NCBI RefSeq assembly: GCF_963921235.1
Contig: NC_086108.1
Span: forward strand, 36,148,001-36,212,000
Direction of reading: 5' to 3'
Source of the DNA: Mobula hypostoma
Lineage: Eukaryota
Length of the DNA: 64,000 nt
The notes beneath the pieces were generated by a model, which searched no databases, had not been told where the DNA came from, and saw only the letters and a list, made by a program, of their open reading frames with translations. Position 1 is the stretch's first letter. Every line of letters starts with the position of its first letter. A program made the translations under genes and the position numbers. Positions 11,589 to 46,840 of the stretch are shown here, in pieces.

Positions 11589-12314
11589 AAATCCTAAAGT
11601 CAACCCACAGCGAAGAGGATTGACGATAGGCTCGACCCACGAACCCGAAGAGGAAACAGAACATACAAAAGATACCTGGAAAAAGGACGCAACCAGTACT
11701 TCAATAATGTATATAGCCCAAAGAGAAAAAAACTAAAACGTGAAGCCCCTCCCGCCACCCTCCGCCCCAAGACCCCAAGGCAAAATCTAAAGCAGACCCG
11801 CCCGAAAGAAGCAAGCGCTAAAACTACCCCCATGACTTCCGGTATACGCTCCCTAAAAAAAAGGTATAAATATGAAAAAGATCAGCTAATTGTAAAACAG
11901 TAAAAAAGTAAAAAAAAAGGTAACTCAATTAAAATACACACACAACAGAACAAAAGCCAGAAAATATATATATTAAAAAAAAACCACAATAAACCCCAAA
12001 CCCATGAATAAACACAACAACAACAAGAAAAAATAAGATTATTGACATAAACTAGTTATAAAAAGCAAAACAAAATAAAATTTAAAAAAAACTACAAAAT
12101 TTAAGGCCACACAGGAAATACGTAAGATGACAAAAAGGAAGTAACCACCCAGAATCCCCTGGGAAAAGAAAGAAATGACGCAGTTAAAAAGAAAGTTTAG
12201 CAACCATATTAAGAAATCAAAAATAAACTTTTCTGCCCAAATAGGGCACGAAAAAGTTAAAACCAACCAATTCACAGCCTCCGATCAACGGAGATAATTA
12301 AAAGAAAATAGCAA

Positions 12315-13214
12315 TTAAGATGTTGAAGGTGAAAATTGATCCAGATAACTCTGGGCATCCGATGGAGAATCAAAAAAACGAAGGGCTCCATCTGACATGC
12401 GAATCCTTAGACGTGCAGGGTACAGCAGCGCTGGTCTTAAATCCATCTTATAGAATTCCGACATCACAGATCTGTAGCGAACCCATTGGTCCCAGATTGG
12501 TTTACTGAAATCTTCCACGAATCGGAACTTAAGATCCGAAAAATCAATGAAACCTTTAGATCGAGCGAATCGAAACAGTCTCTCCTTGTCTTGAAAGTAA
12601 TGAAAACGTAAAATAACATGCCTAGGTCTATCTGACCTAGACGAGTATGATGGGATTCTGTGAACACGATCCAGTAGCGGTGGTTGGTCAGGAAATACAG
12701 TAGGGAATGCATCTTTTAAAAGTTGAGAAAAAAACTTCATGGGGTTGTTAGATTCAACAGCTTCACGCACCCCAATCATTCGTAAATTCTGCCGTCGCAT
12801 TCTAGATTCCAAGTCAGAGTTTTTAAAAGTCAGAAAGTCAAGTTTCTTCTTCATTACATTAATTGTTTCTTCGATTTTCCCCATCTTAAGCTCACTTTGT
12901 TGCGCGGATTTTTGAAGATCAGATATAGCCGACTGATGTTCCGCAATAGATGTTTGCATCTTATCAATTGAATCGGCAATTTTCTGGAGATTAATTGAGA
13001 TTTCCGTATGAATCAGGTCCTTAACAGAGTCTGCAATTTCCGTACGAATCATCTCCCTAACAGAGGTTGAAATTTCCCTCTGAATTAACTCCGATATAGC
13101 TTTCAAAGTCACCGGTGATTCAGTCGGAGGGAAATCCATACCTTTCGGTTTAACCGGAGGTTTACCATCCTTGCCGTTTTTCCCGTTCTTAGACATAGCA
13201 GATCTAAGTTTCAT
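12315..13214 (-). CDS. L1 ORF1p (coiled coil + RRM/CTD, Transposase_22-like), intact, 299 aa
   Basis: LESRMRRQNLRMIGVRE, LDRVHR, PRHVILRFHYFQDKE, EDFS, LLYPARLRI motifs. Confidence 0.92.
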   Translation of the reverse strand: MKLRSAMSKNGKNGKDGKPPVKPKGMDFPPTESPVTLKAISELIQREISTSVREMIRTEIADSVKDLIHTEISINLQKIADSIDKMQTSIAEHQSAISDLQKSAQQSELKMGKIEETINVMKKKLDFLTFKNSDLESRMRRQNLRMIGVREAVESNNPMKFFSQLLKDAFPTVFPDQPPLLDRVHRIPSYSSRSDRPRHVILRFHYFQDKERLFRFARSKGFIDFSDLKFRFVEDFSKPIWDQWVRYRSVMSEFYKMDLRPALLYPARLRIRMSDGALRFFDSPSDAQSYLDQFSPSTS

Positions 13215-14864
13215 CCAGTTATCGGAGAGTTCAATTTAATTCAAAGTATTGTAAGAGTTGATGCCTTAATGGTTAATTAAAGTATAGCTGATCATAGAGA
13301 AAAAAACTCAGAGGTAATGGAGCGAGTCAAGAACGCGACTTCACTCTATGAGCGCTACCGGAAGTCCCCAGCTATACTCCTTGATCAGCCTCTCAAAGCA
13401 TTTGCTTATTATTGAGGTTAGTGCGACAGGATGGCAGTTGTTCAGGCATGTTACCTTAGTCTTTTTTGGTGCAGGGACACTGGTGGATAATTTGAAGCAG
13501 GAGGGCACTCTGCACTGGGAAAGGGAGAGATTAAAAATGTCAGAAGACATACCAGCCAGTTGTGCTGCACACATCCTGATTACTCGCCCTGGGATGCCGT
13601 CCGGTTCTGCAGCTTTGCGACTGTCCACTTGTTGGAAACATCTGCGTACCTCCAGTCTTAGAAATGACCAGGTTGCAAGCTATAGCAGTGGTTTTCCTTG
13701 GAGGCTCAGAGTTAGCGACATCGAACCAAGCATAAAAGTGATTGACCTCATCTGGGAGAGAGGCCTGAATGTTGGCAGCACCACAATGTTTGGCTTTGAA
13801 GTCAGCGATGGCATGCAGCCCTTGCCACAAGTCACGTGTGCTATTCATTGTGTATGTTGACTCAGTCTTGTTCCAATAGTGTTGTTTCACGGCCTTGATA
13901 GCTTTGCGCAGATCATAGCTGCTTTTCTTGAGCTCTAGTTGATTGCCAGCGATGTAAGCTCGATGTCACGCTGTAAATGCTGCTCACACGGAGCTATTGA
14001 TCCAGGGTTTCTGGTTTGGGAAGATCTGACTGACTTGGGGACAAGATCGTTGATGCACTTCCAGACGATGCACGTGACTCCATCAGTGAACTTGGAGACA
14101 TCCTCATCATGGAAGACATTCCAGTTGACGTCATCAAAGCAGTCCTGCAGCATGGAGGCCGATTGGTTGGACCAGCAATGGACGGTTTTATCTATGGCCA
14201 CCTCTTGTTTCAGCTTCTACCTGTACATTGGCAAAAGGAGGATCGAAGAGTTATCTGATTTTCCAAAAGCTGGGTGAAGGAGAGCTTTGTAAGTGTTGCA
14301 CAAGGGAGTGTAACAGTGGTCAAATGTGTATCTCTACTAGTGCTCACCTGGATGTACTGACAAAGTTTAATGTCACAGGCGATGATGAAGGCGGCCTCTG
14401 GATGGTGCAGTCTCCAACCTGTTGATGGTCTTGTGCAGTTCCTTGAGAGCCAGGTCACTATATACACTGCTGTGATGATAAACAGCCATGAACTCACTAG
14501 ACCTCCTGTAGGGTCTGCACAGCAGCGCCAGGTATTCCAGGTCTGGGAAACAAGAATTTGAGAGTATGCACATTCTGGGGGTCGCACCAAGCATTGTTGA
14601 CCATGAAGCATACCCCTCTCCTTTACTCTTCTCAGTGAGGTTTTTCGACCTGTCTGCTCGGAACAAGGAGAAGAACCCGGAGGGCTCTATGGCGTGGTCC
14701 CGTATCTCCTCCATCAGCCAGGTCTCCACAAAGCACAAAACATTGCATTCCTTTGTTTCCAGCTGATAGGAAATAGGAGACCATTTTGGTGTTGATAGCT
14801 AAAATGTTGCTTTTGTTCATCTATACTCCAGTGATTTTTAATTTGCTAAGATGAGATAGGGCAG

Positions 14865-24409: not shown

Positions 24410-26022
24410 TAAATTGAATACCCAATGCTTTTGGACAATAGAAATTTTATAATAGAATAAAACAAAATTATTTGCAATTGATTAGGGTGATTGTCAGGCA
24501 TGCCATATTAATTTCCCCTTTGTGACTCCTCCGTAATCCTATCAAGATGGAATAAAATCCCATGATACCTTCATGGTTGTAAATCATTTAAATTAGATGT
24601 GTTTTAGAAGGTAGGAACATGCACGCACGCACGCTTGCTCCATACGTATATTGCCTTTTTGGTCCCTGACTGGACTTTCCCTGATGACCCTCTTGCTCCT
24701 AATGTAGTAAAACTATTTAAATCTCCACCTTGAAGTTGTTAAATTAGGGATGTTTAAAATATTTGCTCTGATGAAAAACTGATGGGTTATTAATTGAAGG
24801 ATTTAAGTTAGAATATAAAGTTTGTGCTGCTAAAATGCTACTCAGATTTTTTATCACTTTATCATTTTAAATTTAAATTGGTCAAAACTTGCCACTTTTT
24901 CTCATATTTCCTTTAAGTTCACTTGGTCCCAGTTCTCTATACTTCCTTTAAGCTGTTGGAGTTGTAATATAGTGCTTCTCGTAAACTGGAAAGTTTATTA
25001 TTTCACAGCATAACATGTTAAAAATAAACCATAAATGCCAAATTTTTGTGGTGTCAATAAGAGGAACGTACAATTGTCGACATACCTAAACGTCTGGATC
25101 CACCAAAGTCAGAAAGATGCCGGATTATTGGAACTTCACTGTCGCTGGTTAAGTCCAAAATTCACCGTGAAAGTTGTGAAGTTCCCCTCTAAATCTTTTA
25201 TCCATTTTGTAAACCTGTGTCTTTTAGTTTTATTTATCTCTAAGGGGAAAGATTCCTGCTGTCTACCTATACCTCTTATGACTTTATAAATCTCATTCAT
25301 TTCAACTCATTCCCTCCTCTGCTCCAGAGAAAACAGCCAGCCTGACCAGTCTTTCTTCACCACAGCTTCGTGAATCCCCTCTGTACCCTCTCAGCCTATC
25401 TTTCAGTGGTGTGGTGAGCTGAATTATGCTCGGTACTCTATCTGTAGTCTGACCAATACTTTATAAGGTTGGAACGTAACCTTCCTCCTTTTGTATTCAG
25501 TGTTTCAACAAAGTCATCCCATATGTTTTCTTAACCATGTTATCTACCTGTGCTGCACTGTCAGGGATCTTTGGATGTCTATATCAAGGTCCCTCTGTTC
25601 TTCAGTATTACCACGTTTCCTAAGATTACCTTCCACACTTTCAACAACTTCACTATTCTTCGTGTCATCTGCAAACATAGTGATAATACCACCTACGTCA
25701 CAAGCTCATCAAACTTGCATCACAAACAGCAAGTCCCAGTACTAATTACGTTGAAACACTTACTGCATCTAACCACAAAAACACCCCTTTTCCATCACCT
25801 CCGTCTTCAATGGCCAGTATAATTTTCTGTCCATTTTATGCATCAGTTCATACTGTGTGTATCATGCAGTAAATCTGTTGTACCACGTAATGTTCATTAA
25901 GTGTTGTCTTTGTTTTCTATTAACTCTATCCTTCTTACTTATCAAATAGCAAAGAGCCTGCAGCTCTGAGGTGCAGAGTGTCTTTGTGCATGATTTGCAG
26001 AAAGGTTACTAGGTGAATAAGG

Positions 26023-26759
26023 CAAACAACAGGAATTCTGCAGATGCTGGAAATTCAAGCAACACACATCAAAGTTGCTGGTGAACGCAGCAGGCCAGGC
26101 AGCATCTCTAGGAAGAGGTACAGTCGACGTTTCAGGCCGAGACCCTTCGTCAGGACCAAATGAAGGAAGAGTTAGTAAGAGACTTGAAAGTGGGAGGGGG
26201 AGATCGAAAATGATAGGAGAAGACAGGAGGGGGAGGAATGGAGCCAAGAGCTGGACAGGTGATTGGCAAAAGGGATATGAGAGGATCATGGGACAGGAGG
26301 TCCGGGGAGAAGGAACAGGGCGGGGGAACCCAGAGGATGGGCAAGGGGTATAGTCAGAGGGACAGAGGGAGAAAAAGGAGAGTGAGAGAAAGAATGTGTG
26401 TATATAAATAAATAACGGATGGGGTACGAGGGGGAGGTGGGGCATTAGCGGAAGTTAGAGAAGTCAATGTTCATGTCATCAGGTTGGAGCCTACCCAGAC
26501 GGAATATAAGGTGTTGTTCCTCCAACCTGAGTGTGGCTTCATCTTTACAGTAGAGGAGGCCGTGGATAGACATGTCAGAATGGGAATGGGATGTGGAATT
26601 AAAATGTGTGGCCACTGGGAGATCCTGCTTCCTCTGGCGGACAGAGCGTAGGTGTTCAGCAAAATGGTCTCCCAGTCTGCGTCGGGTCTCGCCAATATAT
26701 AGAAGGCCACATCGGGAGCACCGGACGCAGTACACCTACGCTCTGTCCGTAGGTGTACT
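26023..26759 (-). mobile_element. Penelope-like element, 3' fragment (GIY-YIG C-terminus + pLTR)
   Basis: YCVRCSRCGLLYIGETRRRLGDHFAEH...LEEQHLIFRLGRLQPDDMNIDF; hammerhead in the tail. Confidence 0.9.
26123..26156 (-). ncRNA. Minimal type I hammerhead ribozyme with intact core
   Basis: GTC CTGACGA AGGGTCTCGGCCT GAAAC GTC GAC: stem I GTC/GAC, core CUGANGA...GAAA, palindromic ACGU stem III, GUC cleavage triplet. Confidence 0.85.
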
Positions 26760-26820
26760 TCTATAGTCCGTATTTGTCTGTAAACAAATCATCTACCCAA
26801 AAAGAAATCCACTCTTAACA

Positions 26821-26832
26821 GTCCCTTCTCTT
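26821..26832 (-). promoter_or_regulatory. Polypurine tract
   Basis: AAGAGAAGGGAC immediately before the TGTT start of the 3' LTR. Confidence 0.8.
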
Positions 26833-29800
26833 GGCCCTCCTGGACAAATTAAATTTGTATCAGGAAAGGCCAACCTTGGAGGATCTGCTCAAATAGGGCA
26901 GCAAAAATGCCCTGTCTTGAAATTCCCCTCCAATTTTATGTACCTCGATATCTATCCTCGCATTACCTACCAGATGTTAAGCAGAGAGGCTGTTCCAAGT
27001 CTTTAGGAATGTGGCTCCTTTCGTGTGCCTGCTCTTTCCCTGCAGGCTGACTGCATCTTAATCACATTTCTTTGTCTTCAGCCCTTTATCCTCTGGTCAC
27101 TGAAACTCTCCTTCCAGGAGCACCCACAGGCTCTCTCATCGATGTACAGGAAGGGGTTGGGGTGGCCTCTACGTAAACGTCTGCAAGGACCTCTCCCTGG
27201 TGGCACCCCCTTCCGAACTGCCCGGTCGATCACTGGCCCAACTGCTGAAAAGGGCCCAATTCCTCAGACTGGGGTGACTGCTTCCAGATGCCGTGTGCAT
27301 TCTGAAATGCCATCGAAATGGTGGAACTTGCCGTCTCTGCTTTAACTGAGAAATCCCTCCCCGTCTACTTCCCAATAAATTTCTATATTATGGTATAAAA
27401 TTAATCACCTACCTTCAGCAACCAGCCTTCTTTATAGAGTACCATTGTCATCACACTTTAGCAGGCTATTCATGGTTTTCCAAAACGTTCTCAGTGTCTT
27501 CTGCCACGCTCTCGGCGTTTTCTGCCTTTGTTTTCTCCGGGTATGTTTTCATCAGCTGTGGTCAGGTCTGGCATGGCCGGCTGGTGTTCCTCTCTTAGGT
27601 TCTCTGTAATTACATAGTTACTGGGTACATTTGGTTCCCCACTCCGTCTGTGGGAGCAACAAGAGGGTGAGTTGTATGCTTTAACCTGAGTCCAGGTTTT
27701 CCACTGGCTGCCTCACCGAGTCTGTACACAGTTTGAGTGCTCTCTGTGGTCCTGTCCACCTGGGAGCAAATCCTGGCCTTTCTGGCAGCACCCTCACCAT
27801 AACTTGGTCGCCAGGCTGTGGAAGAGCTATTCCCTTTCCCTCTGGCTCTTTCTGATCAGTGATTTGCTGCTGCTGTTTCGCTCAGTCCTCTAATACTTTA
27901 AGCTGGTTACCAAGGTCTTTCACATATTGGGTCATTCTATCCCTGTAAGCCCCAGGCTCCCCGCAACCCGTAATTACTCCATAAGGGAGTCGCATTGCTC
28001 CCCCATCAATAATTCGTAGGGGCTGAGACCCAAAATGCGGTTCGGGGTTGCGCGCAATCTCATCGAGATTCCTGGTAATACATCCACTCATGTCTTTCCT
28101 GTCTCAGCTATAGCTTTGGCTAACGCATTCTTGATTGTTCGGTTCATCCTTTCTACCATCCCTGAACTCTGGGGGTGGTAAGGTACGTGGAATCGTTGTC
28201 GAATCCCTAGCAGTCGGCACATTTCCTTCATCACTTTCCCTGTGAAATATGTTCCCTGATCTGAATCCACCTGAACTGGAGTTCCCCATGCAGCGGTGTG
28301 GGTGGTGCAGTCCCTTGTTGGGAAAGCCTCTACCCACCAGGTGAAGTGATCCATAATTTCTAGAATGTAGCTTCTTCCCCTGCTTTTTGGCAGGGGCCCT
28401 GTGAAGTCTATCTGGATGTTTTCCCCGGGTCCCCTCGGCCGAGGCTGATCTGCCAGCTGTAGCTTGCTGCCCTTACCAGAGTTATGCTGGGCACAAATGA
28501 TACAATAGCAGCAGAATTTCTCAACATCCTTGCCCATCCCTGGCCACCACCAGTCCTACCGGAGTGTTGTGATCATGCTCTGCCTTCCATGATGCATCAC
28601 CCCATGATATAACTTCAGTAGTATCTGTCTAATACAATGTGGGGCCACCGCGACTGTTTCCTCCCCATGTGTCCAGTACCCATCTGGTCCCTCCTTTGCT
28701 CCTTTTCTCCTCCGTTTTTCCTTCTCTTCTGCCTCTACCTCTTCATATAATTTTACTAAGCTGGCTTCTGTTGTTTCCTCCTGCACACTTGCAATTTCAA
28801 TTGCCTCTTGTTCCTCTGCTGCTTTATTTGCAGTAATGTCTGCCCTCGGAGGGAAAACTTTATGTTCTGGAATGGCTGCAGTCTCTCTGAGTATCCCCTG
28901 GTGTTTTTGTTCCTTGGCTATACCCTTAACAGCGGTCAGTGTGTCAATTTGTATAGGGTCCTGCTTAGGGGGTTTATACAGACCCTCCTCTATTTTAACT
29001 GGGTCTATCTTTACCTGCCCACAATCTTGCTTGTCTCTTGCCCATACTGCTGGGAACTGCTGACAAAGTAACCCATAGACACCGTCCTGGCCCCTTTCTC
29101 TAATGATCGGGGCCGCTGCGCCTATGCTATCCAGGCCGTGTATTCTGTTGGTTGTACGCATTCACTGTCCCTGACTCGTCCATATTATTTCTCCTTTTCC
29201 TGAATCTATAACAGCTCCTGCTTCCCTTAGGATATCTATTCCAATGATCGTGCCTTCATTATTTGGACATCCCAAAAATACACTGGAAGCTGCACTCCCC
29301 CAATTTCTAGTATTTGCTTCTTGCTTCTTTCTGCTATTACTGTTTTTCCTCCTACACCCCTGAGATAACTGGCCTGTCCGGTTTTTGGTAAGGGCAAGTC
29401 TGTTATTGATACAGGTGCCCCCGTGTCCACTAATATATTGCATTGCTGTCCCCCTAACAAAGCCGTTATGTACATCCGTGAGTCATCAGAGCTGGCGGTG
29501 GAGCCCGCTGCCACATCCTTTTCTGCCTTAAGAGGCGCTGTCACTAACTCTTTAATCTGATTGACAGTCAGACTGGTAGCTGATGGGGTGAGTGACTGGG
29601 TGTCTGCTGTGACCTTTGCCTGGGTTTTCCCCCTCCCTTTTGGACACTGTCTCCAGCCATGTCCCAATAGGCCACAGCTGTAGCATGTCAACTCCTTCAC
29701 TGTCTTATACCTGGTCCAACAGTCCTTTGCTAGGTGCCTGGCTGCCGGCAAGCAAAGCAAACTCTCCGGGACATCACAGCAGCTGCATCCACTATACCCA

Positions 29801-30924
29801 CTTTACAATTTCTCTTGCCTTTTCATTGGTCTATCTCACTGGCCCGTGAAACTATCTCAGAGTGGTTGGACCCTACCATTATGCCTAAATCTAAAACTTC
29901 TTGGTGGGCTGAGCTCAGGCCTTCCTTCAGCATTTTTAGGACGACTAGGCCATCCCTCCCTTGGTTATCCAACCCGGAATACTCCTCGTACACTCAGTAT
30001 TTACGTTCTGCGTAATCCATGGCTATCTCGTCAGCCTTTTGAATCACTGCCATTATCATTTCCCAGCTACTCTCGCCTCCCTCCAGCCGCTGCGTCACTT
30101 CCCCTTTAAAAGAGCGATATCTTTCTTCATTACTGGCGCTCCTGGTAGTTGCCCATGTACCATCCCGCACCCCCTGGGCGATACTGTCCCACATGTTCCT
30201 TGGCCACTTTGCTTTCACTAACACGTGTGTATTTTTGGGGTGCATCTGGTGAATTTCAACCATTTCCTCGAGTTTGCGCCAGAATTCTGAATTCCCACAG
30301 GCAACTTTAAGTGACAGCAACTCGGACAAAATGCTCTGTTTCTCCCTGGGGTGAAGGGCTTATAAATAGTTGTAATCAAGGTCAAGGGTTGGCTCGGATC
30401 ATCAGGGTTCTCAACCTGACGTTGCCTGACCTCAATAGGTGCCACTCTGGTAGATCAATCTGGGTAAAACCTCTCCCTGAGATATCCCCACACTGCGCAA
30501 AATGTCATAGACGGGTAGCAGTTAAACAGTATATACTTAAAACCACAGAGTATGTATTCCACAATCTGCCACCTTTGGGTACCTGAACTCATAATGCCTG
30601 TTGTATTCCTTTGTATCACACTTGCACACGCATACACTAAAATGCAGCTCCCCGAACGAGTATACACGCCCCTACTCTGGCGTCCCGAACCGTACCGTTG
30701 GTTACCACCCTTCGCAACTGGTGGTCCAACTCTCACCAAGTTAACATGCAAAGATTGCTCACACATAAACACACATGCTCACACTACTTTAATATCTACC
30801 AGTTCCGCTCTCCACGTTCATGATACCTCTGACTGAACAAATCCAAGTGTGAGTGTTACTTTAGAAAAATACTCACCAACTTAAGACTGCTTGGCACGCT
30901 GGCCATATGACGGGTCACGAAGGT

Positions 30925-30942
30925 ATCCCACTCCTGACACCA
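30925..30942 (-). promoter_or_regulatory. Primer-binding site complementary to the tRNA-Leu(CAG) 3' end
   Basis: TGGTGTCAGGAGTGGGAT, 2 nt after the LTR; complementary to ...ATCCCACTCCTGACACCA of vertebrate tRNA-Leu(CAG) (recalled sequence). Confidence 0.9.
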
Positions 30943-30944
30943 AA

Positions 30945-31490
30945 TGTTGTAGCGTGGTTGAAATTACTGGAGAGAGAGAGTCACTGGTAGATACAAAGCA
31001 GCTCCTTTATTCGACACAACAAGGTACAGCAGGTATCTACGTACTGAGACGCTTTCTGCAGAAAGGTCTGCTAGCTAAATGTGGGCTCGATATTTATATG
31101 CTAAACACAAAGGCAATCACTACTTAAAAAGTTACAGACAATGCTTCCTTTTGAAGTTACATACAAATATCACACCTTCGGATTTCATCCTTCTGACGCC
31201 AACGTGTCTGAGTTGGTATCCACGGCCTTTAGTTCAATCCATAATACATTTATTTGACATTTTACGTGCTAACATAGAAGACAATTAATATTTATAATGT
31301 ATAGATAATACTGTCTTCGAAACTACAGCATCAGGCACCAGAAGCATCTCTGGTATTTACACCTTTTAGGAAGCCCATTGTGGTGGACTCAATCCACAGT
31401 CCTTTGTCAAACAGTTAAAATAGAAGTCTGGTGGCCAAAGTCATTTAAGTGTAAACAAATCATCTACCCAAAAAGAAATCCACTCTAACA
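30945..31490 (-). repeat. 5' LTR (546 bp, TGTT...AACA)
   Basis: First ~42 nt repeated at 26779-26820; TATAAA at 31093-31098 and AATAAA at 31006-31011 on the minus strand. Confidence 0.9.
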
Positions 31491-32218: not shown

Positions 32219-32530
<312 letters not shown>

Positions 32531-33953
32531 TAAGGTTATTATGTTTTTATCTATGTGATTTTGAGAATGCACTTGGACTGTTTTTGTTCTGGAAATCTCC
32601 TGCCCTGTTGGAGCATGGGTCAGATTGCTTGGTTTTAGTGTCCAGGATGATGTGGCTGGAGTGTGATCAGAGCTTTGATGCTGGTGATGCTAACCCGAGA
32701 GAGGATGCTGAGATTGTTTGGTCTATCTTTTAATGATTACGGAGGATTTTGTGGATATAATAGTGGTTTTGCATCGTAAGTTGTATGTGCTTCCAAAACT
32801 TACTGGAGGTGAGGCTCACTGCTGGCCGATAGACTGAGCTTGTTGAAATGCTTGAGGTTTGATCTTCAATTTCTTAATTTAATTGTTGATGTCAGCCTTC
32901 ACTGAGAAGCAGCCCCAAGGTTTGAAAAGTGATCTCATTGTAGATCTTGATTTGGGAGGGAAACATTTTGTACTGCAAGCTTGGCAGATTGGGCCTTTTG
33001 TCTTCCAGATACTTCATAGAAGGCCTTTTTATGCTTCAGTGAAGGAATCAACAGTGACATGGAAATTATTGACATGATACAGGTGTATTCTAACTATAAA
33101 TCAATATTAAAAGCTGGGGTGACCTTGGTTCAGGAGTAAAGGTGACAAATGTTCAGTCGTTTCCTTTTCATTTTTAGATTAACAGTAATGAAATAAGAAA
33201 GGCTGAGAAGAGGGTTGATACAGCGTTGATTGACTCCAGTCTGTGGCAGACCCATTGGTTAGGATCACGATTTGCACATAATTATTCAGCAGAGGAAGAA
33301 CTGGGATAAACATCTGAGGAATGACTAAATTGAAAGAATTCTGTATGATCCCTCAATTGATAAAGTTGAAGTCACTCACCTGTATGTGGAAAAAAGCCAT
33401 GTACAGATATAGTAGATTGATTTGGATATTATTCCTAAGAGGGAGAAGAAATTTTAGTTTAAGTTTCTATCTTGGCCAGTTTTAAGCTGTTATAATAGTA
33501 ACAAAAATTGAATGCTTTTGGCAGAAGTCATGGAAGATTGTACTTGTGAATCAAATGCATCAGAGCTGTTTCTTCATAATGTGACAATTTCGTTTGTTTT
33601 TCCACTTAATTTGCTTGACATGGTGTGAATCAAATCTCATATGATGGTTAAGGATTTTAAAAAATATATATTTAAAAATGACACCATTTACTACTTCATT
33701 CTCAAGTTTCTACTATCAATGAAATACCTCTCATTGTAATTAAAATAGAAATTCAGGGTCCAAATTGCATCTGTCAAACCCCCATAATGTAGGAATTGTC
33801 AGGTAATTTGATTTTTGGATTAAACAATAGTTATTGGCTGAACAACAGGATAACTTCTCTTTAGCGTGGTACTATTGAATCTTCTTTTGCTTAAGATGTT
33901 GATGTAGTCTCAATTTAAGGTCTTATTCACAAAAGACACCTCTTTAAATGTAG

Positions 33954-34081
33954 ACAACAGGAATTCTGCAGATGCTGGAAATTCAAGCAACATACATCAA
34001 AGTTGCTGGTGAACGCAGCAAGCCAAGCAGCATCTGTAGGAAGAGTTGCAGTCGACGTTTCAGGCCGAGACCCTTCGATTG
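33954..34081 (-). mobile_element. 128-bp Penelope pLTR tail insertion
   Basis: 17-bp TSD CACCTCTTTAAATGTAG (33937-33953 and 34082-34098); nearly identical to 26026-26148. Confidence 0.9.
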
Positions 34082-34989
34082 CACCTCTTTAAATGTAGTA
34101 TTCCTTATTTCACTCAGTGAGCTTAATTTTTATTTATGGAAATGGATTGCACCTACAAATGAGACTTGCCCTCCACTAAACTAAATCTGGAAATATAATT
34201 AGGAAAGTTAACCTGGAATCTTATGGGAGCCCTCCTCTCTACTGATTATACCTGAAAACAAAAATTGGCATAACTGAACTCATGAAGCTGGTACTGATCT
34301 GACTGATGAGGCACCATGCACCTTTTCTTTTTGTAGATCTTATCACATGCTGGCGTTTGAAGGAGCCTTTTCCATAAAAGTGCTTTAATAAACTAAACTA
34401 CATTTTCAGGCTTAATAGCATGTCAGAGCTATTAAACACTTTGAATGTATCATTAATGTAACATCGAAAGTTCAAAAAAATTATAATTTTTGAGATTGAA
34501 AATGTTTTACTTTAAAAATAATGCAGAAGCAATTAAAAACATATGTTAATTCAAGAAAGGTCAATTACCTGAAACTTACCTGATTTTTTCAGAGCTATTT
34601 CTCCACTGAAATTAAGGGTGTTTCACGAACACACATTTACTGCAGCTAAGAGTTTTAGGAAGTTGGGCCTTCATGTTGGATTCCATGACTGAAGTCTGAT
34701 TGACAGCTCTAGGGTTTAGATCAAAGTTTAGATTTTTGTACTCTTGCAAACAGAGAATCTTAAACTTCCTAATAGTTATCATAGTTATTCTTTAGCAGTT
34801 GCCGCTTGTGGAATTTCTGGTACTTCTCTAAAATGTTCAAACCATTGTAGAAATTGCAAAAGATTTAAGTGAAAATTGATTTGATACATCAGCTGATGAC
34901 TGAAAATTCTCAAAGATATTGTCACTTTCATTTAAGAAAGCTCTTATTATTTGACTTCAATACAATTAAATAAATGTTCTTGGACTTCA

Positions 34990-35630
34990 GGATCAGACTT
35001 TATTATCACTGTCTTATATGATGTGCAATCGTTGTTTTGCAGCAGCAGTGATAGAGTGCAGAGGCATAAATTTACTCTGTATTGCGAACTAAATAAATAC
35101 TGCCTAAAAAGGGGAAATATTAGTTATGTTCATGGACTATAAATAAATCTGATGACAGAAGGGAAAAAGCAGTTCCTGAATCATTCAGTGTGTGTCCTTA
35201 GGCTCTGCTACAATCCCTCGATGGTAGTAACAAAAAGAGGGCATGGTGAGGGTCCTTAATGATGTATGCCTTCTTCTTGAGTCACCGACTTTTGAAGATG
35301 TCTTCGGTGGTGGGAAGGGTTATGCCCATGATGAAGCTGCCAGAGTTTACAATCCTCTGCAGCTTCTTGCAACCCTATGCAATGGAGCCTCCGTACGGGA
35401 CTGTGATGCAATCAGTCAGAATGTTTTCCACTATATTTCCATAGAAATTTGCAAGAGCCTTTGATGTATCACATCTCAAACTCTTAATGAAGTAGTGCTG
35501 CTGGTAGGTCTTCTTCATGATTGCATAAATGTATCCGGCCCAACACAGGTTCTCAGAAATGTTGACATGCAGAAATTTAAAACTGCTAATGCTTCTTACT
35601 GCTAATCCCTCAGTGAGATTTGATGTCTGT
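34990..35630 (-). mobile_element. Rex1/Babar-like LINE 3' fragment, old
   Basis: ISSFKFL...ISENL.W...NFYGNIVENILTDCITV.YG. Confidence 0.7.
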
Positions 35631-37021
35631 TTGATGACATGATGATGAAAAGTGAAGCTTAAGAGTGAACAAATGCTATTCTGATCCTCTAAAAGAATTG
35701 TGGATCTTGACTTCAAAGATCAATTATCCTAACATCAACAATGAGGGAAATGTCTGATTCTGACAAGATTCCTTCTTATGCTCTTAGAAATTATAAATTG
35801 CAAATTGCAAGAATTAAAACATGGTTGGGCCTCATCAATTAAAGCAGTGAATTGAGACATTTAATGTTTTTACAAGTGCATTTGTTCCAACTAATGTGAT
35901 TAGAGTTTGCAGGAAACATCTTCAAAGTAAAAGTAAATTTATTATCAAAGTACAATACATATTTGTCACCATATACTACACTGAGATTTATTTTCTTGTG
36001 AGCATTAACAGTAGATACAAAGAAACACAATAGAATCAATGAAAAGATGACAAACAACCAATGTACAAAAGATGACAAATTATGCAAATACAGAAAAAAA
36101 CTAATAGATACATGATAAATAATATTGAGAACATGAGTTGTAGAGTGCTTGAAAGTGGGCCCATTGGATGTGGAATCAGTTCAGTGTTGAGGTGAGTGAA
36201 GTTGTCCACTCTGGTTCAGGAGCCTGATGTATGCTGGGTAACAATCAGGTTCCTGTACTTCCTGATGGCAGCAATGAGAAGAGAACATAGTCTGGTTGGT
36301 GGGAGTCCTTTTTACTTTCCCGAGCCATTGCTCCTTGTGAACGTGTTCAATGGTGGGAAGGACTTTACCTGCGACGGACTGGCTATATCTACTATTTTTT
36401 GTAGGATTTTCCATTCAAAGGTACCAGTGTTTCCATACCATTCAGTACACCAGTTTGTCAAAGTTTTAGACGACTTGCCAAATCTTTGTAAATTTCTAAG
36501 AAAGTAGAGGCACTGCTGTGCCTTTTTTTTAATGGGATTTACACTATGTGCTGGACCCATCCTCTCAAATGATAATGCCGAGGAATTTAAAATAACTGAC
36601 CCTGTTAAACCTTGCTTCTAATTATTACCCGTAACCCGATGCTAGAACAAACAGTACTACAGAGGATAAAGCAACAGCTTTTTTATTAGTAGCTTGCTAC
36701 TGGAGAGAGAGCACTTCTTAGGCACACACAGGGCCTGTACCGGTGGTCTCTCTCTCTGAAGCACACAGATACAGTGTCTTTTTATACCCTTTTTGTCATG
36801 TAGCAGGAGACAATTTTTTAGCTACCCCCATAGTCACATGCCCAGCAATAGTGGTATTTTGAGACAAAGACCCCTTAGTTATCTTAAAAGGCCAAAGGCC
36901 GTCTAAGTCAGACAATGTGCAAGATGAGGTAGTTCCTCATTTTTCAACCTTATTTCCACATTTTTTAGACAGAATGTAATTAAATTACCACATCTTGCTG
37001 GTGAAACAAGGATTGCAAGGT

Positions 37022-38257
37022 CATTCATAGAACATTCATAGAAAATAGGTGCAGGAGTAGGCCATTCAGCCCTTCGAGCCTGCACCGCCATTCAGTATGA
37101 TCATGGCTGATCATCCAACTCAGAACCCTGTACCAGCCTTCACCCCATACCCCCTGATCCCTTTAGCCACAAGGGCCATATCTAAATCCCTCTTAAATAT
37201 AGCCAATGAACTGGCCTCAACTGTTTCCTGTGGCAGAGAATTCCACAGATTCACCACTCTCTGTGTGAAGAAGTTTTTCCTCATCTCCGTCCTAAAAGGC
37301 TTCCCCTTTATCCTCAAACTGTGACCCCTCGTTCTGGACTTCCCCAACATCAGGAACAGTCTTCCTGCATCCAGCCTGTCCAATCCCTTTAGGATTTTAT
37401 ATGTTTCAATAAGATCCCCCCTCAATCTTCTAAATTCCAACGAGTATAAGCCTAGTCGATCCAGTCTTTCATCATATGAAAGTCCTGCCATCCCAGGAAT
37501 CAATCTGGTGAAGCTTCTTCTCAGATTAGGGGACCAAAACTGCACACAATACTCCAGGTGTGGTCTCACCAAGGCCTTGTACAACTGCAGTAGTACCTCC
37601 CTGCTTCTGTACTCGAATCCTCTTGCTATGAAAGCCAGCATACCATTTGCCTTTTTCACCGCCTGCTGTACCTGCATGCTCACTTTCAATTACTCGTGTA
37701 CAATGACACCCAGGTCTCGTTGCACCTCCCCGTTTCCTAATCGGCCACCATTCAGATAATAATCTGTTTTCCAGTTTTTGCCACCAAAGTGGATAACTTC
37801 ACATTTATCCACATTAAATTGCATCTGCCATGAATTTGCTCACTCACCTAACCTATCCAAGTCACCCTGCAACCTCTTAGCATCCTCCTCACAGCTAACA
37901 CTGCCACCCAGTTTCGTGTCATCTGCAAACTTGGAGATGCTGCATTTAATTCCCTCATCTAAGTCATTAATATATATTGTTAACAACTGGGGTCCCAGCA
38001 CTGAGCCTTGTGGTACCCCACTAGTCACTGCCAGCCAGTCTGAAAAGGTCCTGTTTATTCCCACTCATTGCTTCCTGTCTGCCAACCAATTCTCTATCCA
38101 CATCAATACCATACCCCCAATACGATGTGCTTTAAGTTTGCACACTAATCTCCTGTGTGGGACCTTGTCAAAAGCCTTTTGAAAATCCAAATATACCACA
38201 TCCACTGGTTCTCCCCTATCCACTCTACTAGTTACATCCTCAAAAAATTCTATGAGA
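37022..38257 (-). mobile_element. CR1 LINE 3' part inserted into the ERV
   Basis: Near-identical reverse complement of 60873-62115; FADD motif; small internal deletion near 37515. Confidence 0.93.
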
Positions 38258-38855
38258 ACAATGACCACATACATACTGACACCCTTTGGGTAGGGAAACA
38301 CACCTTTTTTGAGTACAGGTGCATGAAAACTTCCCTTGTTTTATTCTGCAATCATGATTCAGACACCGCTTTTCAATGCAGAGGATGTTCTTAGGGACTT
38401 TGGCAATTACACACCTCCATCCTAATCCCCGGAAACAGAAAGGGTAGCCTTGGATGCCCCTACAGCTACAGTTAGTGACCCAACGTCCCTCTTCCCAATC
38501 ATCATTTCGTTGCATTCGTGCCTTTAGCCAGGACCGAGTTCTCCAGCACTTGGATTGCCAGTTCTCAGAGGTCCACCCAGAGGTACCATTCAGACTTTCC
38601 ACACACCGTCCCCTACTACCTCTTGTAAATCTTCCCTTATCACCTTTACAGTCTCTGCCTGACCTATCCTCTTCCACTAAATCCTCCCACCTCCTTTCAG
38701 ATGGGTTAGCCACGAATAGTGCCTCCACAGATTGAACTAAGGGGTAACATACAGTTCTATTACCATATAATCGCATATGCGTTTCATAAAAGAGATTATT
38801 TTCCAAAGTATCTGATAGTACAAATATAAAGAGTCCAAGTCCAACAACAATCACT
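38258..38855 (-). pseudogene. Env-like surface glycoprotein N-terminal fragment
   Basis: Hydrophobic leader VIVVGLGLFIFVLS, NNLFY motif, sequons NRT/NGT/NCS, many Cys; located between IN and the 3' LTR. Confidence 0.65.
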
Positions 38856-39625
38856 TCGTCTGGCGACCATCGCTCCCAATTGCTCAGGTGAATCCACCAG
38901 TCGTGACCTTGTACTTTTACTGCTTTGGGGGTTTGGAGAAGGATCTGAAAAGGTCCTTCCCACTGGGGTCCAAGCTTGGGGCGCTTCCAATCCCTTATCA
39001 GTACCGAATCTCCCAATTTTCAAATCTGGCCACTCCGCCTCTGGTTTTTCCTGTGGCTTAAACGCCTCCTGCACCTGAGAATGAAGTAACTTTCGAGAGG
39101 ATGTTAATTGTTTGAAATACCTTTGCAGTTCATCCCCCATAACATTAAGGTCAACTTGGGTGGGAGGCTGTGTGTTAGCATCCCATGGGGTCCTTCCGGG
39201 ATGTCCATATACAATTTCAGCTGCTGATACTCCAGTAGTGGAATGGGGAGTAATCCTCATATGATACAAAGCTAATGGAAGGACCTTCAGCCAGAACAGA
39301 TAGAAGTCTGCAGCAACTTTTTTTTTTAACGAGAGCCTGAAAATCATTTTCCCAACCCCTTTAATCCTTTAACATCTCAACCCGCTCCATGTCTGATCCC
39401 CTGATGAGGACTGGCTCGTGGACCTCTGGTTTCTTTTTCAGTTAGTCAACTCTTTTGTTTTGCTGATGTTGAATAAAAAGTTGTTTTTGTGACACCAGAC
39501 AACCAATTTTTCAATCTCCCTCCTATATGTTGATTCAGCTAACAACAATGGTGTTGTCAGCAAACTTAACTATGGCACTGGAGTTGTACTTGGCCCCCAC
39601 TTTACTCGCTTTATACTTAGGAGTG

Positions 39626-42600
39626 CAGGTGTCCCCCCGCTTTATGAGCGTTCACTTTATGCTACTTCACTTTTACGAAAGACCTACATTAGTACCTCTT
39701 TTCGCCAGATGTAACATATAGAGAGGCTTTGAGGAAAGAGAAGCAGAATAAAGGGTGTAAAGGTAGTAAGGTAGAAGGGCTAAAGTGTGTGTACTTCAAT
39801 GCAAGAAGCATCAGGAACGAAGGTGATGAACTGAAAGCTTGGATACATACATGGAATTATGATGTAGTGGCCATTACAGAGACTTGGCTGTCACCAGGGC
39901 AGGAATGGATTCTCAATATTCCTGGATTTCAGTGCTTTAAAAGGGATAGAGGTGGGGGGAAAGGGGAGGAGGGGTGGCATGACTGGTCAGGGATACCATT
40001 ACAGCTACAGAAAGGGTGGGTAATGTAGCAAGATCCTCTTTTGAGTCAGTATGGGTGGAAGTCAGGAACAGGAAGGGAGCAGTTACTTTGTTAGGGGTAT
40101 TCTTTAGGCCCCCTGGTAGCAGCAGAGATACAGAGGAGCAGATTGGGAGGCAGGTTTTGGAAAGGTGTAGAAATAATAGGGTTGTTATCATGGGTGACTT
40201 TAACTTCCCTAATATTGATTGGCACCTGATTAGTTCCAAGGGTTTAGACAGGGCAGAGTTTGTTAAGTGTGTCCAGGATGGATTCCTGTCACAGTATGTT
40301 GACAGGCCGACTAGGGGGAATGCCATACTAGATCTAGTACTAGGTAACGAACTGGGTCAGGTCACAGATCTCTCAGTGGGTGAGCATCTGGGGGACAGTG
40401 ACCACCGCTCCTTGGCCTTTAGCGTTATCATGGAAAAGGATAGAATCAGAGAGGACAGGAAAATTTTTAATTGGGGAAGGGCAAATTATGAGGCAATAAG
40501 GCTAGAACTTGCGGGTGTGAATTGGGATGATGTTCTTGCAGGGAAATATACTATGGACAGGTGGTCAATGTTTAGAGATCTCTTGCAGGATGTTAGGGAT
40601 AAATTTGTCCTGGTGACGAAGATGAAGAATGGTAGGGTGACAAGTGAGGTGGAAAAGGCAGTATACATGAGGTTCAGGAAGCAAAGATCAGATGGGTCTA
40701 TTGAGGAATATAGGGAAGCAAGAAAGGAGCTGAAGAGGGGGCTGAGAAGAGCAAGAAGGGGGCATGAGGAGGCCTTGGCGAGTAGGGTAAAGGAAAACCC
40801 CAAGGCATTCTTCAATTATGTGAAGAACAAAAGGATGACAGGAGAGAAGGTAGGACCGATTAGAGATGAAGGTGAGAAGATGTTCCTGGAGGCTGTGGAA
40901 GTGAACGAGGTCCTCAATGGATACTTCTTTCAGTGTTTACTAATGAGAGAGAACTGGATGATGGTGAGGACAATATGAGTGAGGTTGATGTTCTGGAGCA
41001 TGTTGATATAGAGGGAGAGGAGGTGTTGGAGTTGTTAAAATATATTAGGACGAATAAGTCCCCGGGGCCTGACGGAATATTCCCCAGGCTGCTCCACAAG
41101 GCGAGGGAAGAGATTGCTGAGCCTCTGGCTAGGAGCTTTTTGGCCTTGTTGTCCCCAGGAATGGTACCGGAGGATTGGAGGGAGGCAAATGTTGTCCCCT
41201 TGTTCAAAAAAGTTAGTAGGGATAGTCCGGGTAATTATAGACCAGTGAGCCTTACATCTGTGGTGGGAAAGCTGTTGGAAAAGATTCTTAGAGATAGGAT
41301 CTGTGGGCATTTAGAGAATCATGGTCTGATCAGGGACAGTCAGCATGGCTTTGTGAAGGGCACATTGTGTCTAACAAGCCTGATAGCGTTCTTTGAGGAG
41401 GTGACCAGGCATACAGATGAGGGTAATGCAGTGGATGTGATCTATATGGATTTTAGTAAGGCATTTGACAAGGATCCACACGGTAGGTTTATTCAGAAAG
41501 TCAGAAGGCATGGGATCCGGGGAAGTTTGGCCAGGTGGATTCAGAATTGGCTTGTCTGCTGAAGGCAGAAGGTCGTGGTGGAGGGAGTACATTCAGATTG
41601 GAGGATTGTGACTAGTGGTGTCCCACAATGATCTGTTCTGGGACCTCTACTTTTTGTGATTTTTATTAACGACCTTGATGTGGAGGTAGAAGGGTGGGTT
41701 GGCAAGTTTGCAGATGACACAAAGGTTGGTGGTGTTGTAGGTAGTGTAGAGAATTGTCGAGGATTGTAGAGAGACATTGATAAGATGTGGAAGTGGGCTG
41801 AGAAATGGCAGATGGAGTTCACTCTGGAGAAGTGTGAGGTGGTACACTTTGGAAGGACAAACTCCAAGGCAGAGTACAAAGTATGTTTGTAAATGGCAGG
41901 ATACTTGGTAGTGTGGAGAAGCAGAGGGATCTGGTGGTACATGTCCACAGATCCCTTAAAGTTGCCTCACAGGTGGGTAGGGTAGTTAAGAAAGCTTATG
42001 GGGTGTTAGCTTTCATAAGTCGAGGGATAGTGTTTAAGAGTCGCGATGTAATGATGCAGGTCTTTAAACTCTGGTTAGGCCACACTTGGAGTACTGTGTC
42101 CAGTTCTGGTTGCCTCACTATAGGAAGGATGTGGAAGCATTGGAAAGGGTACAGAGGAGATTTATCAGGATGCTGCCTGGTTTAGAGTGTATGGATTACG
42201 ATCAGAGATTAAGGGAGCTAGGGCTTTTTACTCTTTGGAGAGAAGGAGGATGAGAGGAGACATGATAGAGGTGTACAAGATATTAAGAGGAATAGATAGA
42301 GTGGATAGCCAGCACCTCTTCCCCAGGGCACCACTGCTCAATACAAGAGGACATGGCTTTAAGGTAAGGGGTGGGAAGTTCAAGGGGGATATTAGAGGAA
42401 GGTTTTTTACTCAGAGTGGTTGGTGTGTGGAATGCACTGCCTGAGTTAGCGGTGGAGGCAGATACACTAGTGAAGTTTAAGAGACTACTAGACAGGTATA
42501 TGGATGAATTTAAGGTGGGTGGTTATATGGGAGGCAGGGTTTGAGAGTCGGCACAACATTGTGGGCCATAGGGCCTGTAATGTGCTGTACTATTCTATGT

Positions 42601-43140
42601 TCTATGTTCTAACCGAAAGTGGATTTTTGCTTTTACGAAAAAAGACGCCCGCTTTAAACTTATGTTTACGCTGAGAAAGACTACCATGACTGTGAAGCTT
42701 TGCGCAGGCAGGTGTGTGCGCATGCGTGTGTATGCCGATTTTTTTTCTACAAATTGGTTTTGGCTAAATCTTCCAGATTCTGTTCAGTGAAACTACACAG
42801 TACATACATTATTTCTACTTTATATAGGGTGTGTATTTATCATATCATTCCTGCTTTTACTATATTTTAATATTATTTTAGGTTTTATGTGCTGTTTGGT
42901 ATGATTTGGTAGGTTATTTTTTGGGTCTGGGAGCGCTCAAAAAATTTTCGCATATAAATTAATATAAACTCTCACTAGGTAAGAGTAAGAGTTCGGCACA
43001 GACTACAAGGGCCGAGATGGCCTGTTTCCGTGATGTAATTGTTATATGGTTAATGGTAATTGCTTCTTCGCTTTACGCCACTTTGGCTTACGAATGGTTT
43101 CATAGGAATGCTGTACCTTCGGATAGCGAGGGAAAACCTG
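39626..43140. mobile_element. Tigger/pogo-like non-autonomous DNA transposon, interrupted by CR1
   Basis: Imperfect TIRs CAGGTGTCCCCCCGCT / AGCGAGGGAAAACCTG; TA on the right (TG on the left); about 0.5 kb of own sequence. Confidence 0.65.
39705..42610 (+). mobile_element. CR1 LINE with near-complete degenerate ORF2
   Basis: YFNARSIRN, ITETWL, MGDFN, SDH (EN); KSPGPDG, DFSKAFDK, KFADD (RT); (TTCTATG)n tail. Confidence 0.93.
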
Positions 43141-43859
43141 TATGTGGCTAAGTACACTTATGATAATTGTGGAAGAGATGTTGTTAATCTGAACTGACTG
43201 GGGTCTTCAGATGAGGAAATCTGAGGATTCATTTGCACAAGGAGGTATTGAGGCCTTGGTCTTGACACTTATTGATTAGTTTTGAGGGGATGATAGTGTT
43301 GAATTCAGAGCTGTATTCAATGAAGAACATCCTGATGTATGCACCTTTTCTATCCAGGTGTGCCAGAGCTGAATGAAGAGGCAGTGAAATGGCATCTGCT
43401 GGGCTAGGCAAGTTAGAGTAAATCTACGATACTCCTCAGGCAGGAATTGATAAGTTTTATGACCAGCCTGTCAAAGCACTTCATCACAGTAGATGTAAGT
43501 GTTACTAGACCATAGTCATTGAGGCAGGTTACTGCATTTTTCTTGGGTACTGGTATGATTGAAGCCTGCTTGAAGCAAGTGGGTACCACGGACTGCCGAA
43601 GTGAGAGGTTAAAGATATCAGTAAACGCTCCAGCCAGTTGATTAGCACAGGTCTTCAGTACTCGACCAGGTAGACAGTCTGGGCCAAATATTTTCTGTGG
43701 GTTTTCCTTCCTGGAGGATGCTCTTACATCAGCCTCAGAGACCAAAATCACAGGATTATCGAGGGCTGTGGGAGTTCATGAAGTTACCTCTGTATTCTGT
43801 CGGTCAAAGTGAGCATAAAAGATTCTGAGCTCATTTGGTAGCCAAACCTTGTTGAAATA

Positions 43860-45325
43860 TAGAAAAATAGAAACATAGAAAACCGGCAGCACAATGCAGG
43901 CTTTTCGGCCCACAGAATTGTGCTGAACATGTCCCTACCTTAGAAATTACTGGGCTTAACTGTAGCCCTTTATTTTACTAACCTCCATGTACCTATCTAA
44001 AAGTCTCTTAAAAGACCCTATCTTATCCACCTCCACCACTGTTGCTGGCAGCCCATTTCACGCAATCTCCACTCTCTGAGTGAAAAACTTAACCCGACAT
44101 CTCCTCTGTACCTACTCTTCAGCACCTTAAACCTGTATCCTCTTGTGGCAATCATTTCAGCCCTGGGAAAAAGCCTCTGACTATCCACACGATCTATGCC
44201 TCTCATCATCTTATATACCTCTGTCAGGTCAACTCTCATCCTCCGTCGCTCCAAGGAGAAAAGACCGAGTCCACTCATCCTATTCTTATAAGGCATGCTC
44301 CCCAATCCAGGCAACATCCTTGTAAACCTCCTCTGCATGCTTTCTATGGTTTCCGCATCCTTCCTATAGTGAGGCGACCAGAACTGAGCACAGTACTCCC
44401 AAGTGGGGTCTGACGAGGGTCCTATATAGCTGCAACATTACCTCTCGGCTCCCAAGTTCAGTTCCACGATGGATGAAGGCCAATACACCGTACACCTTCT
44501 TAACCGGAGAATCAACCTGCACAGCTGCTTTGAGTGCCCTATGGACTTGGACCCCAAGATCCCTCTGATCCTCCACACTGCCAAGAATCTTAACCATTAA
44601 TACTATATTCTGCCATCATATTTGACCTACCAGAATGAACCACTTCACTCTTATCTGGGTTGAACTCCATCTGCCACTCCATCAGCCCAGTTTTGCATCC
44701 TATCAATGTCCCGCTGTAACCTCTGACAGGCCTCCACACTATCCACAACATTTCTAACCTTTGTGGCATCAGCAAACTTACTAACTCATCCCTCCACTTC
44801 CTCATCCAGGTAATTTATAAAAATCACGAAGAGTAAGGGTCCCAGAACAGATCCCTGAGGCACACCACTGGTCACCCATCTGTGACCCATCTACAACCAC
44901 TCTTTGCTTTCTATGGGCAAGCCAGTTCTGGATCCACAAAGCAATGTCCCCTTGGATCCCATGCCTCCTTACTTTCTCAATAAGCCTTGCATGGAGTACC
45001 TTATCTGCATGCTGAAGCTTTTCAGTCTGCTGCAAGTCATCACTACAGTCACCAAGATCCTTTTCCATAGTGAATACTGAAATAAAGTATTCATTAAGTA
45101 CCTCTGCTATTTCCTCCAGTTCCATACACACTTTCCCACTGTCACACTTAATAGGTCCTATTCTTTCACATCTTATCCTCTTGCTCTTCACATACTTGTA
45201 GAATGCCTTGGGGTTTTCCTTAATCCTGCCCGCCAAGGCCTTCTCGTGGCCCCTTCTGGCTCTCTTAATTTCCTTCTTAAGCTCCTTCCTATTAGCCTTA
45301 TAATTTTGTAGCTCTCTGAACCTTT
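43860..45325 (-). mobile_element. CR1 LINE, internally deleted
   Basis: IKENPKAFYKY, WIQNWL, QRRFTRMLPG; same subfamily as 51100-53037. Confidence 0.88.
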
Positions 45326-45394
45326 GTGACTAGGTTTATTACAGCCTTTATTTATAAGTTGCTTGGTTTTACTTTATCAGAGGTGATAGCATTC

Positions 45395-46227
45395 AAGCCC
45401 TGCCTCAGTTGTTGAGCATCTTTCAATGATTCGGGGTTGGTCTAAAATTGCCATGTTGCATGCAGGATGGCTTTCTCGAGATGTACGTGGACCTTTTGTA
45501 CTTTCCTTGTTTGCCAAACCTAAGCGCTATTGATTAGCCCTCAGCAGGTTATGGATCTCTTGGTTCATTTAGGGCTTCTGGTTGAGGAAGTCCGAATAAT
45601 TTTGTTGGGTGAAAGAGGTAGTCTCTTTCACGAATATTTTTATAAAGTCCATGACCACTGAGGGGTATTCATTCAGAGCCTCAGATGAGCCTTTGGACAT
45701 GGCACAGTTCACTGACTTTAAGCAATTCAGTAGCTGTTCCTGTGCTTCCCATGACCACCCCTATGTTGTCCTTGCCTCTGGTGCCTGCTCTTTAGTTTAA
45801 GTTCAAGTTTGTGTATTGTCATCTGACTGTCCATTTATACAAACAAGCAAAACAGTGTTTCTCTGGTCCATCATACACCCACAATACGTATATCACACAC
45901 GGCACATAAAACTAAATATTACCACAAACATTATGTAAAATATAATTCAAAGTGCACGTGAAGTGCACAGCACAGGTAAGCATTAACAGTACAGTCGACA
46001 GTAAATAGCTCACTGTCCTGATGCTTCTGTGCATACCTCCTGATGGTGGTGGATGAAAAGATTGCGGGATGCGAGGTAGGGGAACCTTGGTGATCCTCTT
46101 GGCGGTTTTGCAGCCTGCTACCGAGCAGCCTCTGTACCACACGATGATGCAGCCAGACAGGACACTCTTGATGGTGCTCCTGTAGAAAATTGTTAGAATG
46201 GAGATGGCAACCTTGCACGCCTCAATT
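45395..46227 (-). mobile_element. Rex1/Babar-like LINE fragments
   Basis: NQKP*MNQEIHNLLR remnant and a Rex-type 3' tail. Confidence 0.55.
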
Positions 46228-46228
46228 T

Positions 46229-46770
46229 ACATAGAACATAGAGTAGTACAGCACAGTACAGGCCCTTCGGCCCATAATGTTGTGCCGACCCTCAAACCCT
46301 GCCTCCCATATAACCCCCCCACCTTCAATTCATCCATATACCTGTCTAGTAGTCTCTTAAACTTCACTAGTGTATCTGCCTCCACCACTGACTCAGGCAG
46401 TGCATTCCACGCACCAACCACTCTTTGAGTAAAAAACCCTCCTCTAAAATCCCCCTTGAACTTCCCACCCCTTACTTAAAGCCATGTCCTCTTGTATTGA
46501 GCAGTGGTGCCCTGGGGAAGAGGCGCTGGCTGTCCACTCTATCTATTCCTCTTATTATCTTGTGCACCTCTATCATGTCTCCTCTCATCCTCCTCCTTTC
46601 CAAAGAGTAAAGCCCTAGCTCCCTTAATCTCTGATCATAATACATACTTTCTAAACCAGGCAGCATCCTGATAAATCTCCTCTGTACCCTTTCCAATGCT
46701 TCCACATTCTTCCTATAGTGAGGTGACCAGAACTGGACACAGTACTCCAAGTGTGGCCTAACCAGAGTTT
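46229..46770 (-). mobile_element. CR1 3' fragment
   Basis: Near-identical reverse complement of about 42070-42605. Confidence 0.92.
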
Positions 46771-46840
46771 CTCAGAAAGTATAGACGCTTCTGTGCTTCC
46801 TTTATGCAGGTTGGACCTCAGTCTCCTCAGAAAGTATAGA

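Follow-up and report, generated by a model that had tools for sequence, protein, structure and literature searches.

Non-autonomous endogenous retroviruses (ERVs) are well known, and the non-autonomous elements described to date keep, as far as the accessible parts of the literature go, nothing, Gag or Gag-protease, or Gag fused to a pol remnant. The mouse IAP 1-delta-1 elements, which are Class II ERVs, are env-less and have a 1.9-kb internal deletion that takes part of gag and pol, keeps one frame and leaves them in need of a helper, and of Gag, in trans; their fusion protein acts in cis and they dominate new insertions (available portions of PMC6466679 and PMC7411935). Among bovine ERVK[2-1-LTR] elements, defective D-type copies outnumber competent ones 85 to 15 via trans-complementation (available text of PMC10924933). 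In plants, RLG_Quinta, RLG_Sabrina and TR-GAG retain Gag or Gag-protease and borrow their enzymes, RLG_Quinta and RLG_Sabrina being without both reverse transcriptase (RT) and integrase (IN), and sugar beet families in which RT, RH or INT survive as remnants are called degraded (PMC13570524 and PMC11302176, in the parts available). The SnRV-like ERVs (clade Huo) occur in all major vertebrate groups, including shark, according to the accessible text of PMC6001957, PMC4977317 and PMC4422223, and no deleted form is mentioned in those parts of the clade literature that were examined.

Here, we describe an ERV that was found in a 64,000-nt stretch of vertebrate DNA dense in repeats (the window) and that has lost the RT core, tether and most of RNase H from an otherwise recognisable gag-pro-pol region. 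The element is probably (with a probability of roughly 0.7) a dead member of a non-autonomous, env-less, RT-less subfamily of SnRV-related ERVs that was amplified by the RT of a helper.

Layout of the element and its locus

The decayed ERV lies on the minus strand, running from 31490 to 26779, with the host gene CDC73 in the opposite sense. An internal CDC73 exon on the plus strand (32234-32455; Pfam CDC73_N, E 1.9e-30, profile positions 171-243) follows it, and the element probably sits antisense in a CDC73 intron, on the upstream side of this exon. The first-pass annotation, made from the sequence alone, had credited the element with complete cis-signals. A 546-bp LTR with TG..CA ends is indeed present as the 5' LTR (30945-31490, minus strand), and loose ends of public contigs fall at 30945 and 31491. 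After a 2-nt spacer it is followed by an 18-nt PBS-type site (30942-30925), which we take to be of the tRNA-Leu type; the site is the single match in the window and was found in none of 100 shuffles. A search of the window for tRNA genes found none, and there was no match to Rfam. The PPT, too, was located, as a PPT-like tract at 26841-26821. "Complete" is nonetheless too strong a word, as only the first 42 nt of the 3' LTR remain (26820-26779, with one indel relative to the start of the 5' LTR). This LTR is cut at a 5'-truncated Penelope-like (GIY-YIG) repeat identified with Pfam, which lies outside the element on the same strand (26016-26778), and the remainder is nowhere in the window; hence, neither a TSD nor an LTR age can be given. 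Beside the LTR cut, the Penelope-like copy has a short inverted segment and a hairpin at its 5' end (26639-26778).

The 4.1-kb interior includes remnants of gag, protease and integrase, all on the minus strand. A capsid-like Gag fragment (29994-30359) has no Pfam match and scores 0.91 to Gag p24/p30 clusters in the ESM Atlas, a match of low recognition value that is a lead only; gag extends into further frames, with stops and frameshifts interrupting it. The zinc knuckle and DTG protease reported earlier are both there. The knuckle (CX2CX4HX4C, 29644-29685) is read from the sequence, with Pfam zf-CCHC below the cut-off at E 0.025, and directly upstream of it is a second knuckle that is apparently split by a frameshift. 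The protease (29170-29484) matches Pfam RVP at the cut-off and is interrupted by a frameshift near 29270, its tblastn matches being in two frames. The integrase (27711-28650; Pfam rve and H2C2) retains HHCC and D,D,E, but the description of it as full does not hold. It is damaged by stops at 28556-28558 and 28088-28090, a 30-nt gap near 28286 that leaves the core short by about 10 residues, and a frameshift in the C-terminal part, and the pol frame as a whole has three in-frame stops. With gag, pro and IN all broken, this copy is dead. The remaining 3' region (26842-27710, about 870 bp) has a longest stop-free frame of 72 aa and no membrane-length hydrophobic stretch, and no env was seen in it, as had been noted. 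Neither of the two components expected of a complete, infectious provirus, RT and env, is therefore present. What is present is the set of parts of a non-autonomous LTR retroelement, in which the replication enzyme is missing and LTR, PBS and PPT are retained, the 3' LTR having been cut secondarily.

Several other repeats were seen in the window, whose repeat content is reminiscent of cartilaginous fish. A near-complete LINE, presumably L1-like, occupies 7809-13235 on the minus strand; its ORF1-like, endonuclease and RT-like frames are split into several pieces. A Tc1/mariner transposase fragment (Pfam) at 55093-58608, also on the minus strand, is followed by three more long frames of another DNA-transposon-like element. 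Two young CR1-like copies (37037-38257 and 60873-62117) lie in opposite orientation and are 92-97 % complementary.

Loss of the reverse transcriptase region

The first-pass annotation had described a 201-aa ORF that continues from the N-terminus of RT, through what looked like the last RNase H helix, to the IN zinc finger, with a junction near 28870-28880, and this description was borne out. In the ORF (29161-28556, minus strand), the RT stub, last RNase H helix and integrase are in a single frame. The RT N-terminal stub (29060-28879) is 38 % identical to P0002, a protein from the related-family set, over residues 2-143, and the last RNase H helix with the linker to IN (28846-28650) aligns with P0003 from residue 760 and P0002 from residue 698 onward. 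In the read-through translation, residues 4-143 correspond to the end of the protease and the start of RT, and those from 146 onward to the RNase H helix and IN. Between the two flanks is a junction zone with an open frame (28879-28845), defined by alignments to relatives and by contigs, and the exact breakpoint is within it; 11 residues encoded there fit neither flank well. On an alternative reading of the alignment, these 11 pre-helix residues may, read in another frame, belong to an RNase H loop, and the deletion would then be out of frame with a compensating indel.

The size of the loss is about 1.65 kb, or approximately 545 codons of the RT core, tether and RNase H. The relatives' set comprised 230 proteins, 15 of which matched the N-terminal part, and 13 of these 15 carry 539-611 extra residues between the two flanks; the three closest have 544-549 extra residues at the site of the deletion. 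YxDD, noted earlier as missing, and LPQG are absent from all six frames of the element, and tblastn found no match to the RT core in any of them.

Three database proteins of related families also lack the RT core. P0085 consists of protease, RT stub and IN without the RT core, P0088 has an N-terminal part fused to the end of RNase H and an IN that is 98 % identical to that of P0085, and in P0102 a partial RT is joined to RNase H. They may be real deletions or artefacts of the gene models, and are left out of the supporting evidence.

Relationships of the element and potential helpers

The IN scores 121.6 bits against that of foamy virus (PFV) and 49.8 bits against Ty3, which, together with the retroviral RNase H of the relatives, rules out a Gypsy origin. 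The closest full-length relatives (P0002-P0007) have the order PR-RT-tether-RNase H-IN, with Pfam RVT_1, RT_RNaseH and RNase_H domains in P0002. The retroviral tether and second RNase H are thus found in the relatives; of the latter domain, the element itself has the final helix left. P0002 was nearest to the element (57 % identity) in an IN tree of 46 rows, and the element fell in none of the starred clades. The RT motifs of the relatives agree, judged by eye, with those of the SnRV sequence in the available supplement of PMC7947760. Taking the RT of its nearest relatives as a proxy, the element appears to be SnRV-like. Two other assignments were discarded, Lokiretrovirus as the relatives read LPQG like SnRV and the Loki sequences in the same partial source read CPFG (by eye, and via the relatives), and ERV4 of Repbase as its Gag is without a zinc finger according to Table 1 of PMC4299795, the part of that paper used, and the element has a knuckle.

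No close RT-bearing partner that could have acted as the helper was found as a protein or a locus, the best relatives in the collections being 48-52 % identical. The 201-aa ORF matched none of 662 longer candidates, none of 76 candidates of near length and nothing in the PDB; its best score in the ESM Atlas was 0.78, which is a lead only. No related locus was found among viral contigs or metagenome contigs. Another retrovirus, distinct from the element, has left a fragment at 38240-39368 on the minus strand of the window: the C-terminal part of an IN (Pfam MLVIN_C, E 4.4e-11) and, after it, a frame rich in cysteine that is possibly env. As only 10 of 29 residues match the IN of the element, it is no obvious helper.

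RT-less copies in public contigs

Parts of the element were found in 20 of the 24 public runs listed, and four were compared in detail: X1, X5 and X9, which are DNA runs under three organism labels (A, B and C, X9 being from organism C), and X10, which is RNA by guess only. Contig depth is not copy number and the following ratios are orders of magnitude. In X1 the unique flank, free of differences, had a depth of 10.5; in X5, where 8 differences in 690 were seen, its depth was 6.9. In both runs the median depth of the interior was about 4,100, or approximately 400-600 times that of the flank, and the depth of the LTR was 33,000-47,000, approximately 4,000-5,000 times that of the flank. Relative to the interior, the LTR was covered about 3-16 times as deeply. 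At 28850, within the junction zone, the depth was 1016, 1684 and 903 in X1, X5 and X9.

Contigs that bridge the junction were present in all four runs, and above single-copy depth where the flank sets the scale. A variant with a 6-nt in-frame insertion at 28850 was represented by two, three and three contigs in X1, X5 and X9, with depths of 58, 345 and 175 (in X1 about 6 times the flank, in X5 about 50 times), and was absent from X10. A 599-nt record in X10 (record 10), 86 % identical to the element, bridges the RT stub and the IN linker; its RT-side piece is 194 letters long and its IN-side piece 240, and 165 letters separate them (a length change of +141 between the pieces and +140 overall). 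In X9, a joint between 28852 and 28935 with a depth of 39.7 skips 82 nt across the junction zone, which is not a multiple of three. Direct bridges are few (eight contigs with the 6-nt variant, one long bridge and one joint), with 15 joints of 700 and 12 indels of 62 listed. They show the same defective structure in many copies, and the RT-less form thus exists beyond this locus, under three organism labels. The uniqueness of the junction to this locus, which would have spoken against a lineage, was not observed.

No loose end at the junction was among the 24 of 4,104 loose ends listed; these start at 8-11 contigs, the level of a family-wide difference at 28286, and are compatible with a large RT-bearing fraction. 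In X5 and X9, 9-11 contigs end loosely at the IN gap at 28286, which is therefore private to the copy at this locus. Depth in bins was abandoned as a test of the junction, as it is insensitive, with no dip even at this private gap. Of 783 differences 40 were listed, and for 30 of these in X1 and 31 in X5 the difference accounts for at least 90 % of the depth; much of the decay therefore postdates insertion. Flank contigs that start inside the LTR end are 100 % and 98.8 % identical in organisms A and B, so the insertion is common to these two; flank cover in organism C was almost nil. In the contigs of the four runs, no other RT-less copy came with its flank or a TSD.

One contig each in X1 and X5, with depths of 17 and 6, joins the start of the LTR (31490) to 28964. 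The join is common to organisms A and B and represents either a nested LTR insertion or a further copy that has lost IN.

Probable origin and amplification of the RT-less form

As the 5' LTR includes a full U3 and the 3' LTR starts at the PPT, the element was presumably made by retroviral reverse transcription, which for an RT-less template would call for helper Gag-Pol in the same particle. A LINE-made pseudogene was ruled out by the full U3 in the 5' LTR. An ancestor would have lost about 1.65 kb of pol, leaving protease, stub and integrase in one frame as this copy shows, and the contigs support multiplication of the shortened form in the germ line. Its RNA, with LTRs, PBS and PPT, would have been packaged into particles that also held helper Gag-Pol, copied by helper RT and integrated by its own or helper IN, and the copy described here would have entered the genome before organisms A and B diverged and have decayed later. 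The loss of env fits intracellular spread (PMC6466679, available part).

The bridging contigs could have other sources. The family might be chiefly RT-bearing, with RT-less copies formed by several independent deletions near one hotspot and few of them retransposed. At least four forms of the junction (the window type, +6 nt, about +141 nt and -82 nt) would suit such a history, as would the fusion of upstream parts to IN at other breakpoints in P0085 and P0088, if these are not artefacts, and loose ends beyond the 24 listed could contain RT-bearing branches. All the forms lie inside about 90 nt, however, the depth of the +6 variant in X5 far exceeds that of a single copy, the variant is found under three organism labels, and only 0-1 % of aligned contigs continue into unlike sequence, and we consider this history unlikely. 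That a single deletion followed insertion, the other bridges being the orthologous locus, DNA-level duplications or products of gene conversion, is less probable still. Though the insertion is common to organisms A and B and the copy strongly decayed, with about 1 % difference in the flank a bridge diverged by 14 % cannot stem from this locus, the depth is single-copy in the flank and far higher at the junction, and organism C has a junction variant with almost no flank cover. The smallest chance is given to the junction being a splice joint, in which case the family would descend from a spliced subgenomic RNA of an SnRV-like virus that the parent's RT had copied. SnRV splicing is complex (PMC12193657, in part) and splicing would account for a clean, frame-preserving loss, but junction lengths vary among the contigs. 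We therefore favour the amplification of an RT-less subfamily by a helper.

Whether the proteins of the RT-less form mattered to it is a separate question. The open frame, the fact that the best-supported variant is of 6 nt, and the precedent of IAP 1-delta-1 count in favour. The 82-nt variant counts against, as does the one-in-three chance of keeping frame, by which the open frame across the junction can be explained. The ratio of RT-stub to IN identity was 0.62-0.70 versus 0.80-1.16, and 0.85 versus 0.85-1.06 without the last 10 residues; the difference vanishes once these residues are left out, and the comparison is not used as evidence on relaxed constraint in the stub. By analogy with IAP 1-delta-1, Gag and a PR-stub-IN protein of its own may have favoured the element's RNA in cis, for which we put the chances at somewhat below even. 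It is rather doubtful that gag, protease and IN were kept under selection after RT was lost, with RT-less copies the majority of a family of hundreds and only reverse transcription borrowed, possibly from a distant helper. Of the non-autonomous lineage originally suggested, then, the RT-less form beyond this locus stands, and the supply of its own capsid, protease and integrase is a possibility only, the copy being dead and neither a helper nor distinct TSDs having been seen.

Comparison with known systems

ERV surveys detect and classify elements by RT, and an RT-less family of such size would therefore escape them. With loss confined to RT and RNase H, natural copies could separate the retroviral proteins that work in cis from those that are shared goods, and the family could reveal whether helpers are driven extinct by defective forms, as in the model for bovine ERVK in the available text of PMC10924933. 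If it is true that IN was kept, this would have brought freedom from matching the LTR ends of the helper.

No vertebrate ERV family with gag, protease and IN but without RT is reported in the literature searched, which included the available part of PMC12440569 and lay outside most subscription papers, Repbase and Dfam, and such a family may already have been catalogued. The nearest complete relatives of the element share, by eye, RT motifs with SnRV and so resemble the SnRV-like ERVs of clade Huo, such as CmiERV lineage I of the elephant shark. The SnRV provirus is 11.2 kb long (PMC12193657, in part), whereas the interior of the element is 4.1 kb without RT, RNase H and env. The plant semi-autonomous elements, as described in the sources available, belong to Gypsy or Copia, and this element is of the Retroviridae type. 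The bovine D-type copies are, in the accessible account, without any intact ORF, whereas at issue for this element is the retention of three genes. Like IAP 1-delta-1, the element is env-less and has an internal deletion that keeps one frame and calls for a helper in trans; unlike IAP 1-delta-1, its deletion is confined to RT-tether-RNase H, with gag and protease outside it. A loss limited to RT and RNase H in an SnRV-like lineage appears, within the literature searched, to be new.
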